Assembly: GCA_043804895.1 (NCBI GenBank) | Contig: JAZDIN010000004.1 | Span: forward strand, 72,887 to 136,886 | Reading direction: 5' to 3' | DNA length: 64,000 bases | Source of the DNA: Candidatus Altiarchaeota archaeon | GTDB lineage: Archaea; Altiarchaeota; Altiarchaeia; IMC4; SCGC-AAA252-I15 | Part shown: positions 6,454-21,568 of the stretch, piece by piece | Numbering within the stretch: the stretch's first letter is position 1 | Layout of the letters: each line of letters opens with the position of its first letter | Made by a program: the position numbers and the translations under genes | Notes under the pieces: model-generated | Seen by the model: only the letters and a program-made list of their open reading frames with translations | Databases searched by the model: none | Told to the model about the DNA's origin: nothing

Positions 6454-6516
6454 AAGTCCGTTCCGGGGGGATCAGGGTTAACTTAAAACTGAGGGGGCGG
6501 TAGCCCCCTGCGGTTT

Positions 6517-6723
6517 AGCCTCAGGCGAGAATTGAACTCGCCACCTCGTGCTGTTTGTAGCTTGAATTGACCCGGTTTTTCTTTCTTTGAACCCGAGGGC
6601 CTCACCGCCGAGCCTTTTAGGCTCGGGTGTGTGTCTGAGACTTTTGTCTCAGCCACATTCTTTCTTGCGAAGAAAGAAAGGGGCTCTACCAAGCACGCGC
6701 TCTACCTACTGAGCTACTGAGGC
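6517..6723 (-). tRNA. tRNA-Thr(GGU) with a 134-nt intron after position 37
   Basis: Manual cloverleaf: GCCTCAG-TA-GCTC-AGTAGGTA-GAGC-G-CGTGC-TTGGTA|intron|A-GCACG-AGGTG-GCGAG-TTCAATT-CTCGC-CTGAGGC-T. No encoded CCA. TTATAA box about 28 nt upstream (6751-6756). Confidence 0.85.
6553..6686 (-). other. tRNA-Thr intron (134 nt) containing the multi-hairpin module
   Basis: Begins GAGCCCCTTTCTTTC..., homologous to the start of the tRNA-Glu intron. Contains ATGTGG-CTGAGACAAAAGTCTCAG-ACACACACC-CGAGCCTAAAAGGCTCG. The exact splice junctions are inferred from the cloverleaf. Confidence 0.7.
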
Positions 6724-6872
6724 TTTGTTGATGTTGCCAATTCGCCAGCCTTATAAGGCCTTTATTGAGGCGATTTGGTTCCTATTCTTTAGGTATTTGT
6801 GGTTTATATGTTCCGGGGTGAGTGTCCCTTAGGGGTGTGGGGTTTTTTATTGCGTTGCGCTTATTATCTACC

Positions 6873-11177: not shown

Positions 11178-13269
11178 ATGTCGGATAAACAGACGACAGT
11201 TGGGGGGGATTCTAGAAGACCATACTTAACCCCGTTTTTCCTGCAGTGCATAATCGACAGCATATACTCCCCGATATTCTCGGTTGACGAAAACTACATC
11301 TACACCAGCTTCAACAAGGGCCATGCCGCAGCCATGAAGTCCATCTACGGCGTAGACATCGAATTCGGAAAAAGCATTCTGGATTACATGAGTGTCGAAG
11401 AAGACCGCGCAACCGCGAAGGCAAACCTAGACCGTGCCTTGCGCGGAGAATCCTTCATCGAAGAGGCCTATTCAGGCGATACGAAATTCTCAAGGCATTA
11501 TTTCGAAGTCAGACACACACCCCTCAAGGACGAAACCGGAACCGTATACGGCGTGAGCGTCTGCGCAAAGGATGTCACCGAACGCAAGCAGGCGCTGAAT
11601 GCGGTGCAGGCGAGTGATTCGAAGTTACAAGCCGCCATAAATATTCTGCCGGTGGGACTCTGGATTATTGACGCGGAAGGACAGATTATAACCAGCAGCG
11701 CTGCCGCCCAGCGAATCTGGGGGGGGGGTACATTACGTTGACCTAAACCAGCTTGGTGAATACAAGGGCTGGCGGACCGACAGCGGTAAACTGGTAGAAT
11801 CTCATGAATGGGCGGGGGCTCGGGCCCTTGAGAAGGGTGAAACTACAACTGAAGAGGAAGTCGAGATCGAGTGCTTTGATGGCACGCACAAGATTATCCT
11901 CGACTCTGCCGTGCCGCTGCGCAAAAGCGACGGGAGCATCTGTGGCGCCGTTACCATCAACCAGGACATCACCGAACGCAAGAAAGCGGAGGCTGCGCTG
12001 AAGGAGTCTGAGGTAAAATTCAGATCAATATTTGACAATGCAGCTGAGGGGATATTGTTAGCCGATCTGGAAACTAAGAAATTTTACATGGGCAATAATG
12101 CAATTTGCCGGATGCTTGGCTACAGCATGGAGGAAATTACAGGTTTGGGGGTCATGGACATTCATACTGAAAAAGACAGCCCTTATGTTATTGATCAATT
12201 TGAAAGGCAAGCAAAAGGAGAGTTTGTTTTAGCAAAAGATTTACCCGTTAAGAGAAAAGACGGCAGTGTTTTTTATGCTGACGTTACTTCAACAACCGTC
12301 AAAATTGCCGGAAAGACATACCTACTCGGTTTTTTCCACGACAACACTGAACGCAAGAGGATGGAGGATGCGATAAAAACCCGCGAGGAAAAATACTGCA
12401 GCCTATTCGAAAACTCGCGCGACGCCCTCATGATACTTGAACCCCCATCCTGGAAGTTCACAAGCTGTAATAATGCAACCCTGAAAATGTTCAATGCGAG
12501 AAACATGGAGGAATTCACCTCATTGGGGCCTTGGGATGTATCCCCGAAAACGCAGCTGGACGGCAGTGACTCCGGAGAGAAAGCCCAAGAGATGATTGGG
12601 ACTGCCATCCGCGATGGTAGCAACTTTTTCGAGTGGACTCACAAGCGGATAGACGGAGGGAAGTTTCCAGCCACGATCCTTTTGACCCGGATGGAAGTGT
12701 GTGGAAAGGCCTTATTACAGGCGACAGTCAGAGACATCACCGGCCTCAAGGAGGCGGAGGTTAAATTGCGGAATAGTCGGGAGTACCTAGAGAGGGTAAT
12801 AAACAGCATCGCCGACCCAGTCTTTGTGAAAGATGTTAACTCCCGGTTTGTCCTTGTCAACGATGCCTTATGCAATATGTGGGGGTTAAGCAGGGAGAAT
12901 ATGCTCGGGAAAACACTTGCCGAATCACTGCCTGAGGACCAGATAGAACACTTCCTCAGAGTCGACAAACTAGTGCTCGAATCTGGGCAGGAGAACGTGA
13001 GCGAGGAACTGCTCACTGCAAAAGATGGAAAAGTCATGAGTATAGTCACAAAGAAGACACGCTATGTCGACAACGAAGGGAACATGTTCTTAGTGGGCGT
13101 GATACGCGACATCACCAAAAGGAATATAATGGAGAATGAACTCAAGAAACGCGTTCTTGACCTTGAAAGGTTACTGAGAATAACCGTGGACAGGGAACTT
13201 ACGATGATAGCTCTCAAGAAGGAGATCAACAAAATGCTGGATGAGGCCGGCAAGACCCGGAGATACTAG
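11178..13269 (+). pseudogene. multi-PAS sensor protein interrupted by a +1 frameshift in a G10 tract
   Basis: ORF 11178-11741 (PAS) stops 4 codons after G10 (11719-11728). The +1 frame is open from the tract to 13269 and continues the same PAS domain (...YVDLNQLGEYKGWRTDSGKL...INQDITERKKAE). Removing one G restores a single ORF of about 697 aa with about five PAS repeats and no kinase domain. Confidence 0.75.
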
Positions 13270-21406: not shown

Positions 21407-21568
21407 TGCTCCCTTCGGGATTTGAACCCGAGTCGCCGGATTTCTCCAGGCAGGACCTAACGGTTCTGCCACCCGTTTTTCTTGGGGGGTGAAGCACCTT
21501 TCTTTTTTGAAAAGAAAGGGGCTCTCTGCGAAAGTCCGGTATGATAGGCCGGTCTACACTAAGGGAGC
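21407..21568 (-). tRNA. tRNA-Glu(UUC) with an 87-nt intron in the anticodon loop
   Basis: GCTCCCT-TA-GTGTAGACCGGCCTATCAT-A-CCGGA-CTTTCG|intron|A-TCCGG-CGAC-TCGGG-TTCAAAT-CCCGA-AGGGAGC-A. The D-arm GTGTAGNCCGGCCNATCAT is the archaeal tRNA-Glu signature. The junction could be 37/38 or 38/39. Confidence 0.85.
21442..21528 (-). other. tRNA-Glu intron (87 nt)
   Basis: CAGAGAGCCCCTTTCTTTTCAAAAAAGAAAGG...AAGAAAAACGGGTGG.... Both ends resemble the tRNA-Thr intron (GAGCCCCTTTCTTTC... and ...AAGAAAAACCGGGTC). Confidence 0.7.

Follow-up and report, generated by a model that had tools for sequence, protein, structure and literature searches.

The introns of the tRNA-Thr(GGU) and tRNA-Glu(UUC) genes in a 64,000-nt stretch of DNA from a Candidatus Altiarchaeota archaeon (contig JAZDIN010000004.1, in the following termed the window) are almost certainly canonical bulge-helix-bulge (BHB) introns, each carrying a member of a large family of conserved structured modules. 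Judged by comparative evidence, the module is a previously undescribed, widely conserved structured RNA. The origin of tRNA introns is an open question, and a 2026 census of Asgard tRNA introns reports neither a general arrival route nor copying between tRNA genes. In the present genomes, copying between tRNA genes is plain and the copied unit is defined, which renders the route of intron arrival testable, with filled, partial and empty orthologous sites available in close relatives.

tRNA genes and introns of the window

No tRNA gene was detected in the window by ARAGORN without intron mode or by Rfam at gathering threshold; ARAGORN with introns called two. The first, c[6516..6724], was called tRNA-Thr(GGU) with an intron of 134 nt, and the 5' part of this gene alone yields a weak Rfam tRNA match. 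For the second, c[21407..21568], the ARAGORN label Ser(aga) was rejected, as the splice site is misplaced; the exons read as tRNA-Glu(UUC), in agreement with the identity proposed in a preceding sequence-only reading of the window. Complete cloverleaves (73–75 nt) are obtained only after removal of 134 nt (Thr) or 87 nt (Glu) past position 37, and the Thr intron coordinates and both intron lengths given in that reading proved exact by ARAGORN with introns and exon readout. As most tRNA genes of these genomes escape standard tRNA finders and Rfam, the annotated tRNA complements are incomplete. The tRNA-Thr(GGU) gene is composed as follows:

6517..6723, minus strand: tRNA-Thr(GGU) gene (ARAGORN with introns, exon and intron sequences read out)
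6687-6723, minus strand: exon 1 (exon/intron readout)
6553-6686, minus strand: intron, 134 nt, position 37/38
6680..6686, minus strand: intron segment A, GAGCCCC (BHB folding)
6658..6679, minus strand: intron hairpin P1 (fold; hairpin covariation over 115 distinct copies)
6670-6679, minus strand: P1 pyrimidine arm, UUUCUUUCUU
6667-6669, minus strand: P1 loop, CGC
6658-6666, minus strand: P1 purine arm, AAGAAAGAA
6602..6657, minus strand: 56-nt double-hairpin element between purine arm and linker (copies elsewhere in the genome)
6589..6601, minus strand: linker D, variant form, GGCCCUCGGGUUC
6576..6588, minus strand: purine tail E, AAAGAAAGAAAAA
6553..6575, minus strand: tRNA-specific 3' part of the intron (spacer and BHB strands)
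6559-6561, minus strand: 3' strand of helix h', GCU
6555-6558, minus strand: central-helix strand, ACAA
6553-6554, minus strand: bulge, AC
6517-6552, minus strand: exon 2 (exon/intron readout)

The G of segment A forms the third base of the 5' bulge, and the following AGC pairs with GCU (6559-6561) to give helix h' of the BHB. The Thr(GGU) module copy is a variant, characterized by linker GGCCCUCGGGUUC, which is common to the introns of Thr(GGU), Thr(UGU) and Leu(UAG), and by the inserted 56-nt double hairpin, which represents a separate repeat family with copies on contigs C33, C30, C48 and C3. Its nearest neighbours are the introns of Thr(UGU) and Leu(UAG), plus a 110-nt copy with 97% identity on contig C33; by itself, the Thr(GGU) copy yields only partial profile matches (E = 1e-4). 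In tail E, the runs A3-G-A3-G match U3-C-U3-C of the 5' arm in parallel register. The tRNA-Glu(UUC) gene harbours a copy of the common type:

21407..21568, minus strand: tRNA-Glu(UUC) gene (ARAGORN with introns and exon readout)
21529-21568, minus strand: exon 1
21442-21528, minus strand: intron, 87 nt
21476..21524, minus strand: module copy, common type (covariance model, fold)
21518-21524, minus strand: segment A, GAGCCCC
21510-21517, minus strand: pyrimidine arm, UUUCUUUU
21497-21506, minus strand: purine arm, separated from UUUCUUUU by the loop
21484-21496, minus strand: linker, UGCUUCACCCCCC
21476-21483, minus strand: purine tail, AAGAAAAA
21442..21475, minus strand: variable 3' part of the intron (fold)
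21407-21441, minus strand: exon 2

The covariance model matches this copy at 21472-21526 with 71.5 bits, and the module fold has a z value of -3.6. In the variable 3' part, CGGGUG, which is able to pair with CACCC, is followed by a hairpin (GCAG...CUGC), the h' strand CU, the central-helix strand GGAG and the bulge AA. Orthologous tRNA-Glu introns retain the module, the remainder including the variable 3' part being unalignable.

Profile and covariance-model matches bear out the earlier proposal that the two introns are long and homologous across tRNAs of different acceptor identity. The profile of the shared part matches the Glu intron at E = 2e-15; seven further tRNA introns of this genome give E values between 1e-11 and 1e-15, and additional copies are matched as well. 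The scores of profile and covariance model, together with a linker that is conserved and non-repetitive, rule out low-complexity or chance likeness. With respect to the shared parts described earlier, GAGCCCC, the pyrimidine arm, the loop, the purine arm, a later purine tail and C(C)GGGU are indeed present in both introns, but the tail is not terminal, as 21 nt (Thr) and 31 nt (Glu) remain beyond it to the intron end.

Splice junctions and splicing endonuclease

In the fold of the tRNA-Thr(GGU) junctions, the anticodon stem (5 bp) is followed by a 3-nt bulge, a central helix with three of four positions paired, a second 3-nt bulge and helix h' (AGC:GCU, 3 bp). The tRNA-Glu fold has a central helix with all four positions paired (two G-U) and a shorter h' (AG:CU, 2 bp). 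The sequence-only reading had seen no obvious strict BHB by eye and noted that, in this case, a relaxed-specificity splicing endonuclease would be needed; neither part was upheld. A canonical hBHBh' structure no more than 8 nt from the ARAGORN call was detected in 60 of 75 module introns, compared to 5 of 75 with shuffled intron 3' ends. Helix h' is built from the 5' bases of the module and attains 10–12 bp in compact introns of 55–57 nt. The sole EndA gene (C1:19115-19663) codes for a protein of 183 amino acids with Pfam N and C domains, the best full-length match of which is the α4 enzyme of M. jannaschii (1A79, E = 2e-38); no EndA paralog was detectable in the genome. As predicted from folds and gene content, the two are protein-spliced archaeal tRNA introns of the ordinary kind, located at the canonical site 37/38.

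Anatomy and distribution of the module

The module (about 55 nt) consists of GARCCCC, pyrimidine arm, loop, purine arm, GGUGYUUCAYCCCC and purine tail, in this order, and starts 0–5 nt past the 5' splice site. In this genome, at least eight canonical tRNA introns contain the module, namely those of Phe, Met, Glu, Gln, Asn, Thr (two genes) and Leu, with many more identities found in relatives. Next to the introns, the module locates directly 3' of several tRNAs of this genome (trailers and spacers), and either the module or a mini version, (A)A-GARCC...GGYUC-RCGAAGG, lies behind most tRNA 3' ends; 5' tRNA fragments followed by the module are likewise present. The two introns originally noticed thus turned out to be two members of a large family reaching outside introns.

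Among the relatives, 38 of 41 genomes harbour the module, with up to 42 copies per genome, whereas one family is free of it; phylum-wide, 43 of 61 genomes contain it. The 136 copies in relatives include 59 in sense orientation inside ARAGORN-called canonical introns and 22 further ones that start no more than 10 nt from a tRNA 3' end; five are antisense (every one a second copy within an intron) and only two have a downstream tRNA within 25 nt of the copy end; these context counts, like those of arms and tails below, ignore the shared ancestry of copies. All called intron copies are at position 37/38. Near-identical module sequences were also detected in metagenome-assembled genomes (MAGs) labelled DHVE2, Thermoplasmata and Micrarchaeota, which differ in splicing-endonuclease architecture; the module occurs alongside EndA architectures of the α4, α'2 and ε2-like types. 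Some genomes contain intergenic tandem arrays and copies beside protein genes, which are unexplained by a purely tRNA-processing role, and in one lineage, judged by a noisy ORF-context analysis, copies are located downstream of genes in either orientation.

Sequence, beyond structure, is conserved over paralogs, orthologs and phyla, and a linker that hardly differs between phyla hints at a trans-acting partner. In the genome, no partner complementary to tail or linker was found besides the modules' own antisense. Rfam holds no family resembling the module, permissive scans of both introns gave chance-level matches only, and none of the Rfam C/D families reaches E = 1 on the Thr and Glu introns. 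The conserved module core lacks C box, D box, guide and H/ACA features, and no conserved promoter-like element is present in the module loop. Literature searches returned nothing on tRNA introns of Altiarchaeota or on triple helices in archaeal tRNA introns.

Hairpin covariation and register of the purine tail

Across 115 distinct copies, 98% of the cells of the hairpin are paired, and both-side changes occur in 11 of the 14 pairs; none of 500 shuffles reached the observed values and slid controls gave 60–85% pairing. Pairs of the G-U type are frequent and C-A almost absent, which favours sense RNA.

In 119 of 126 copies, the first A-run of the tail has the length of the first U-run in the 5' arm, compared with a mean of 43 and at most 63 copies under permutation (shared ancestry ignored). 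Where the arms are asymmetric, a parallel rule holds for 95 of 101 copies and an antiparallel one for three, the parallel rule being valid inside each stem type and for run lengths of 3, 4 and 5. A second data set, made up of MAGs of other phyla, yielded agreement with the tail rule in 31 of 33 copies, and with the parallel versus antiparallel rule in 24 and 0 of 26, respectively. C-run lengths are equal as well, and the register match spans 10–18 nt. A tail antiparallel to the 5' arm, or forming a direct repeat of the purine arm, was accordingly rejected (3/101 and 0/26). Such parallel co-variation between a tail and a helix strand is rarely met in comparative data. Since Watson-Crick pairing cannot give a parallel register of tail and arm, a three-stranded or pseudoknotted fold of the module is suggested.

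Loops starting with CC(C) go along with GGG directly after the tail (16 of 24 copies, as opposed to 3 of 100 with other loops). In compact introns, the strand pairing with GARCCCC comes immediately after the tail, and at least two alternative folds must exist there, because the three-stranded register and helix h' exclude each other. One consistent secondary structure could not be derived, the helices A:D1, A:F, D2:F and GGUG:CAYC being partly mutually exclusive.

It is conceivable, though doubtful, that the module represents a natural long triple-stranded RNA of at least three archaeal phyla and a bulk product of EndA, RNase Z and RNase P from tRNA transcripts. A purine-rich strand would then run residue for residue along the 12–17-bp pyrimidine:purine hairpin, with a loop-to-flank pseudoknot in some copies. 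According to work of Semerad and Maher from 1994, RNA strands reportedly do not form purine-motif triplexes, and an all-RNA major-groove A*A-U/G*G-C helix is therefore questionable. If real, a three-stranded fold would constitute a new natural RNA motif with hundreds of sequence variants in hand; the triple-stranded module would define a new class of RNA tertiary motif and would parallel, in prokaryotes, the triple-helix elements linked to tRNAs, of which the MALAT1 3' end is an example.

Intron gain and possible mobility

Orthologs of tRNA-Thr(GGU) are devoid of an intron in G017 and G010, contain an 83-nt intron without module in G020 and a partial version of 51 nt in G003, a member of the same genus, and possess module introns in G000, G007 and G016. 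Because the orthologs vary between no intron, a module-less intron and a module intron, gain or replacement is real; the earlier proposal of intron gain instead of vertical descent alone agrees with this pattern of gain, loss or replacement.

Reverse transcriptase (PF00078) is lacking in this genome as well as in 37 of 41 relatives, module-rich ones included, and Y1 transposase (PF01797) in this genome and several module-rich relatives. The presence of neither tracks module counts over the 41 genomes, and a single LAGLIDADG_3 match was found, away from tRNAs. As drivers, reverse transcriptase, Y1 transposase and LAGLIDADG proteins were discarded, being absent or unlinked. Comparison of a few filled and empty sites revealed no target-site duplication, and viral contigs contained no module, three IMG/VR pattern matches being coding sequence without hairpin. 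Compact copies are bounded by inverted segments, GARCCCC...GGGGYUC, which double as BHB helix h'.

Proposed role and rival explanations

For the putative cis role of the module we tentatively prefer a packaging cassette. Its first bases (GARCC) would build helix h' of the BHB together with the final, tRNA-specific bases of the intron, and the rest would fold on itself into the 12–17-bp pyrimidine:purine hairpin. The conserved linker, containing UUCA, would reverse chain direction, and the purine tail would follow the hairpin from base to loop, one nucleotide per base pair, to yield a three-stranded or pseudoknotted clamp. Thereby, a long insert would be held as a compact, inert body and the intron ends would meet, offering a strict BHB to a strict α4 or α'2 endonuclease; directly after a tRNA 3' end, the module would shield the tRNA from what is transcribed downstream. 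Being self-contained and always removed by tRNA processing, the cassette could be copied at low cost between tRNA transcription units, which would account for a module common to unrelated tRNAs and for differing orthologs. The route of copying would probably be DNA recombination or conversion between tRNA loci.

A selfish nature appears rather unlikely: the module would be a non-autonomous miniature mobile cassette spreading among tRNA loci and archaeal phyla, persisting because tRNA processing removes its insertions in introns, trailers and spacers, and with a fold recognised by some mobilising enzyme. Patchiness in orthologous tRNA-Thr genes, a copy number that varies between 0 and 42 in the relatives (0 and 16 inside the genus), the tandem arrays and the copies away from tRNAs, the terminal inverted GARCCCC...GGGGYUC of compact copies and near-identical sequence in three phyla would all be in line with it. 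The genome is, however, devoid of reverse transcriptase and Y1 (IS200/IS605 or RAYT), neither tracks counts in the 41 genomes and the sole LAGLIDADG_3 match is not at a tRNA; moreover, target-site duplications were not seen at the few sites compared, viral contigs hold no copies, and the Glu and Met introns are stably orthologous across families. Descent from split tRNA genes, with the intron as fused trailer of a 5' half and leader of a 3' half, is very improbable. Module and mini version follow most tRNA 3' ends of this genome, GARCC pairs with the intron 3' end in the manner of the flanks of split halves, and 5' tRNA fragments followed by the module occur, but close relatives possess intron-less orthologs, so that the introns are gains, and the module loop carries no conserved promoter-like element.

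The conservation of sequence across paralogs, orthologs and phyla beyond structure, together with an orientation following tRNA transcription, could also reflect a functional small RNA, stable and nuclease-resistant, which EndA would free from introns, and RNase Z with RNase P from spacers, the linker GGUGYUUCAYCCCC of which binds a conserved partner and the folded-back tail of which guards the 3' end. In two spacers of this genome, the tail ends 3–4 nt ahead of the next tRNA 5' end, so that cleavage by RNase Z and RNase P would release precisely the module. This explanation is unlikely, considering that the genome contains no complementary target for tail or linker, that a downstream tRNA closely follows only the aforementioned 2 of 136 copies, and that C/D or H/ACA features and an Rfam match are lacking. 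Still less probable is an element acting at the DNA level, i.e., a homopurine mirror repeat (H-DNA) which gives a pyrimidine-motif fold-back triplex on the antisense strand and would pause or terminate transcription or stall forks at highly transcribed tRNA genes. The tests of tail/arm register measure exactly the mirror symmetry of the two purine tracts, T-rich tracts exist on both strands, and one lineage has copies in both orientations downstream of genes. In contrast, the abundance of G-U and near absence of C-A pairs in the hairpin fit sense RNA and not DNA or antisense, copies are strictly co-directional with tRNAs, and the equality of C-runs and the link between loop CCC and GGG fall outside a mirror repeat. 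Intron copies must also be transcribed through and match trailer copies in the length of their T-runs, and a terminator, for which longer T-runs in trailer copies had been considered, was rejected for lack of any difference.

Comparison with known systems

Like REP/BIME, IS200/IS605-derived PATEs and MITEs, the module is a short multi-copy hairpin in non-coding DNA, and, akin to the module tail, a sequence adjoining the hairpin of IS200/IS605 recognises a remote one via non-canonical pairing. It differs from these elements by the absence of a Y1 transposase from the genome and of a correlation with Y1 across relatives, by target duplications not being seen at the few sites compared, by its strict linkage to tRNA transcripts and their orientation, and by the register match over 10–18 nt. 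With H-DNA mirror repeats, the module shares two purine tracts forming perfect mirror repeats with a 12–14-nt spacer, but its spacer is conserved, its orientation relative to transcription is fixed, and it additionally contains an inverted repeat with G-U pairs of the RNA type.

In the triple helices of MALAT1 and MEN-β (next to the tRNA-like mascRNA) and in viral ENEs, an A tract is clamped by two U-rich strands (U*A-U). A U-rich hairpin with a genome-encoded A-rich tract folding back is likewise predicted for the module, and in the two spacers the tract ends, as in MALAT1, at the RNase P site of the downstream tRNA. In contrast to ENEs, most module copies are not at a 3' end, and the module has one pyrimidine (U-rich) arm and two purine (A-rich) tracts, so that the chemistry of a module triple would have to differ.

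The canonical intron of archaeal tRNA-Trp houses a C/D box sRNA that is released by the splicing endonuclease; hallmarks of C/D sRNAs are the C (RUGAUGA) and D (CUGA) boxes, a K-turn and a guide. The module resembles it as a conserved RNA within a canonical tRNA intron, but is devoid of C, D, C' and D' boxes, of a guide and of an Rfam match, and resides in many tRNAs instead of one.

Very similar introns in different isoacceptor tRNAs, dependent on the BHB, are described for Thermoproteales by Fujishima et al. (2010), as summarised in PMC4090602, where intron gain is inferred at the DNA level with its mechanism unknown. Near-identical sequence across tRNA identities and BHB junctions are features common to these transposed introns and those studied here. 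In contrast to Thermoproteales, the module spans MAGs of Altiarchaeota, Micrarchaeota and Thermoplasmatota, the shared part is a structured module of about 55 nt and not a short intron, all intron copies occupy the canonical site and none a non-canonical position, and a single, α4-like EndA takes the place of the broad-specificity (αβ)2 enzyme, with the module additionally occurring outside introns, directly after tRNA 3' ends.

Interrupted tRNA genes in the window

No tRNA was detected in the 64-kb window by ARAGORN without its intron mode or by Rfam at the gathering threshold; two genes appear once introns are allowed. The coordinates, lengths and tRNA identities proposed in the sequence-only reading are correct according to ARAGORN with introns and reading of the exons.

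Features of the window
6517-6723, minus strand: tRNA-Thr(GGU) gene (ARAGORN with introns)
6553-6686 exactly, minus strand: 134-nt intron of tRNA-Thr(GGU) (ARAGORN with introns)
6602-6657, minus strand: double hairpin, ~56 nt, inside the module of the Thr intron
21407-21568: tRNA-Glu(UUC) gene (ARAGORN with introns; identity from the exons)
21442-21528: 87-nt intron of tRNA-Glu(UUC) (exon/intron readout)

The ARAGORN label of the gene at 21407-21568, Ser(aga), is wrong, its exons being those of tRNA-Glu(UUC). Both introns fold far better than shuffled sequences (z = -3.6 and -4.9). They have in common GAGCCCC and a pyrimidine arm joined through a short loop to a purine arm; a purine tail lies farther along, with C(C)GGGU after it. 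Of the shared intron start and end claimed earlier, the shared segments stand; the tail is not the intron end, as tRNA-specific sequence of 21 nt (Thr) and 31 nt (Glu) lies beyond it. Both are securely identified as canonical bulge-helix-bulge (BHB) introns, and the module in each belongs to a large, undescribed family of structured elements linked to tRNA transcripts.

The Thr(GGU) module is a variant with the linker GGCCCUCGGGUUC, also present in Thr(UGU) and Leu(UAG), and is interrupted between purine arm and linker by the 56-nt double hairpin, which belongs to a separate repeat family (AUGUGG, stem, ACACACACCC, stem, GYKGUGAR; the stems covary). Contig C33 holds a 110-nt copy 97% identical to this variant. 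The double hairpin was also found in further introns and spacers as a repeat family of its own.

Splice junctions and splicing endonuclease

The geometry tested comprised anticodon stem, 3-nt bulge, 4-position helix (nucleotides 32-35 with the intron 3' end), 3-nt bulge and inner helix h'. In this genome, the introns of Phe, Met, Thr (both genes), Asn, Leu and Arg have a central helix of 3-4 of 4 pairs and an h' of 3-5 bp; Glu and Gln, both sites of which ARAGORN had misplaced, reach 4 of 4 by hand and after re-calling. The strands of h' are the first bases of the module (GARCC) and the tRNA-specific intron end. In 55-57-nt introns of Thermoplasmata and DHVE2 MAGs, h' extends to 10-12 bp (GARCCCC... 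with ...GGGGYUC).

One gene for the splicing endonuclease EndA was identified (183 aa, both Pfam domains), over its whole length closest to the alpha4 enzyme of M. jannaschii; no paralog was detected in the genome by tblastn, and the same form (175-190 aa) is present in five other Altiarchaeota genomes. According to PMC5829648, relaxed motifs are cut by (alpha-beta)2 and epsilon2 enzymes only. The earlier suggestion of relaxed junctions served by a relaxed-specificity endonuclease is not supported, given the canonical motif in 60 of 75 module introns across all loci (42 with 4 of 4), compared with 5 of 75 after shuffling of the last 25 intron bases, and the single alpha4-like EndA; no such enzyme is needed.

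Module structure

The consensus reads NN-GARC-C-C(C)-U_a-C-U_b-(C-U_c), loop, (A_c-G)-A_b-G-A_a-G(G)-U-GYUUC-AY-CCC(C)-A_a-G-A_b..., with GGG(G)(UG or YUC) often next; insertions are tolerated in the hairpin loop, at the arm/linker joint and 3' of the tail. Covariation was assessed in a covariance-model alignment of 115 distinct copies, which is biased toward the structure it fits. In the hairpin (arms plus the basal GARC:GYUU helix spanning a conserved C x U mismatch), pairing extends to 98% of cells, compared with 60-85% in slid controls, and two-sided changes occur in 11 of 14 pairs (246 cells); none of 500 shuffles attains these values. Since G-U pairs are frequent and C-A mismatches nearly absent, folding of the sense RNA fits, rather than of DNA or the antisense strand.

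The tail keeps a parallel register with the 5' arm: in 119 of 126 parsed copies, the U's from the C-run to the first interrupting C are as many as the A's that precede the first G in the tail (permutation mean 43, maximum 63 in 10,000 trials), and the second run agrees in 31 of 32 copies with a second interruption in both. Among 101 copies with asymmetric arms, 95 obey the parallel rule; the rule expected of a direct repeat or of antiparallel pairing of the tail holds in 3. Equality is present separately in the GAGC/GCUU, GAAC/GUUU and UAGC/GCUA stem types, each with run lengths 3, 4 and 5, and thus runs or stem types changed repeatedly and in coordination. C-run lengths likewise track each other between the two strands, and the R of GARC, Y of GYUUC and Y of CAY are associated (A,U,U in 43 copies; G,C,C in 40; mixed minorities). 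GGG directly 3' of the tail occurs in 16 of 24 distinct copies with CC(C)-starting loops versus 3 of 100 with other loops (Fisher p = 1e-11, computed without ancestry correction). In a second data set, from other phyla, the register recurs in 31 of 33 distinct copies; of the 26 with asymmetric arms, 24 are parallel and none is antiparallel. Some matches extend over three runs, for example U5-C-U4-C-U2 with A5-G-A4-G-A2.

Watson-Crick pairing has the opposite polarity to this register, and we know of no replication or recombination process that produces mirror or parallel-complement repeats. In the simplest physical interpretation, the conserved UUCA reverses the chain and the tail follows the hairpin from its base up to its loop, with one residue for each pair; loop-flank pairing would lock this fold in some copies. 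All-RNA purine-motif triplexes are, to our knowledge, without support in published biophysics. Tail register and h' are incompatible in compact introns, so alternative folds must exist.

Copies in the genome

The assembly (1.58 Mb, 71 contigs, 88.7% complete; window at C4:72887-136886) contains 26 tRNA genes by ARAGORN with introns, 17 of them interrupted. Module-bearing canonical introns reside in Phe(GAA), Met(CAU), Glu(UUC), Gln(UUG), labelled 'Stop' by an ARAGORN miscall, Asn(GUU), Thr(UGU), Leu(UAG) and Thr(GGU). A profile built on the common portion matches module introns at E = 1e-11 to 2e-15, and also copies directly 3' of the ends of tRNA-Gly(UCC), Leu(GAG), Ser(GCU) and Leu(UAG), of a displaced tRNA-Ile 3' fragment and of a 20-nt tRNA-Val 5' fragment. 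At two sites the module fills the whole spacer between tRNAs, from 2 nt past the first to 3-4 nt before the second.

Most other tRNA 3' flanks open with a miniature relative, (A)A-GARCC, short T/A-rich hairpin, GGYUC and RCGAAGG, located 1-2 nt past the discriminator, which looks like a short form of the module.

Related elements and sites (C, contigs of this genome; L, sequences from other genomes)
C2:23411-23440; C24:28730-28767; C25:40280-40319; C48:4120-4160: miniature hairpin
C33:5170-5230; C30:~700-790; C48:~12150-12230; C3 (tRNA intron): double hairpin
C25:114380-114445; C48:~12140-12200; L096, L098, L064: GAGGAGGGUAGGGUUGAUAAGGG motif
C3:36344-36693; C52:34220-34442: long introns without module

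Several further arrangements were observed. Upstream of the complete tRNA-Val(UAC) gene lies a duplicate of its first ~20 nt, with a module directly after (C33:23440-23654), an arrangement kept in several genomes (L036 of genome G011; L023 and L108 of G036). The conserved motif GAGGAGGGUAGGGUUGAUAAGGG lies 3' of tRNA-Leu genes or fragments and of some modules in several genomes. In two more canonical introns of great length (256 nt and 151 nt), the module is absent and other hairpin repeats are present; ARAGORN calls the host of the former Ser(cga), and its BHB scores poorly. The module copies at C17:25074-25131 and C20:55769-55841, which sit at or near contig ends, are identical, as is the sequence downstream of them; the repeat probably breaks the assembly there.

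Distribution across archaea

By covariance model, 38 of 41 relatives carry the module, with seven families of the order represented and as many as 42 copies in a genome; so do 43 of 61 genomes of the phylum, and in one family all four genomes lack it. A scan of 185,579 species genomes for the exact pattern also matched MAGs, outside these 61, titled DHVE2/Aciduliprofundum, Thermoplasmata/Thermoplasmatales and Micrarchaeota, with 1-24 copies each in canonical tRNA introns and at tRNA ends. Their EndA forms differ (306-350 aa with two repeats, alpha'2-like, or 389-463 aa, epsilon2-like), and the taxonomic spread is therefore real and no labelling artefact. A full-scoring module directly 3' of an archaeal-looking tRNA-Arg on a 3.3-kb contig (L134) of a 'Candidatus Taylorbacteria' CPR bin may reflect a mis-binned archaeal contig. 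Viral contigs yielded no true copy. In Thermoplasmata MAG AUK033 (L191:7480-7850), the region between divergent protein genes is taken up by three tandem 144-nt units, every one of which contains a full module plus two degenerate hairpins that resemble it.

Discussion

Among 136 copies of the Altiarchaeota set, 59 lie in sense orientation within ARAGORN-called canonical introns, and in nearly all re-called copies the C-run of the arm begins 3-8 nt into the intron. Another 22 begin at most 10 nt from a tRNA 3' end, 12 are located upstream of tRNAs (several of them after 5' tRNA fragments), 5 are antisense second copies inside introns, and 38 are without assigned context, many with anticodon-loop-like upstream sequence missed by ARAGORN. 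Tentatively, and at somewhat less than even probability, the module is regarded as a cis-acting packaging cassette: it would supply h' and keep most of a long insert locked in an inert form, making the cassette cheap to copy among tRNA transcription units.

A purely selfish cassette is the next reading to consider and appears rather unlikely. Some module introns are old: in tRNA-Glu, six genomes belonging to three families have one, and G000 and G016 share ~96% identity in the module while their remaining intron sequence is unalignable. Others are labile, orthologous tRNA-Thr(GGU) genes being intron-less or having a module-less, partial or module intron. Neither reverse transcriptase nor Y1 transposase was found in this genome, neither tracks copy number, and the one LAGLIDADG_3 match lies away from any tRNA. 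Release of the module as a functional RNA is less probable still, and a triplex element acting at the DNA level is improbable. Descent from split genes is very improbable.

The closest precedent is provided by the intron families of Thermoproteales (PMC4090602), from which the present case differs in module structure, canonical position, copies outside introns, taxonomic spread and endonuclease type.
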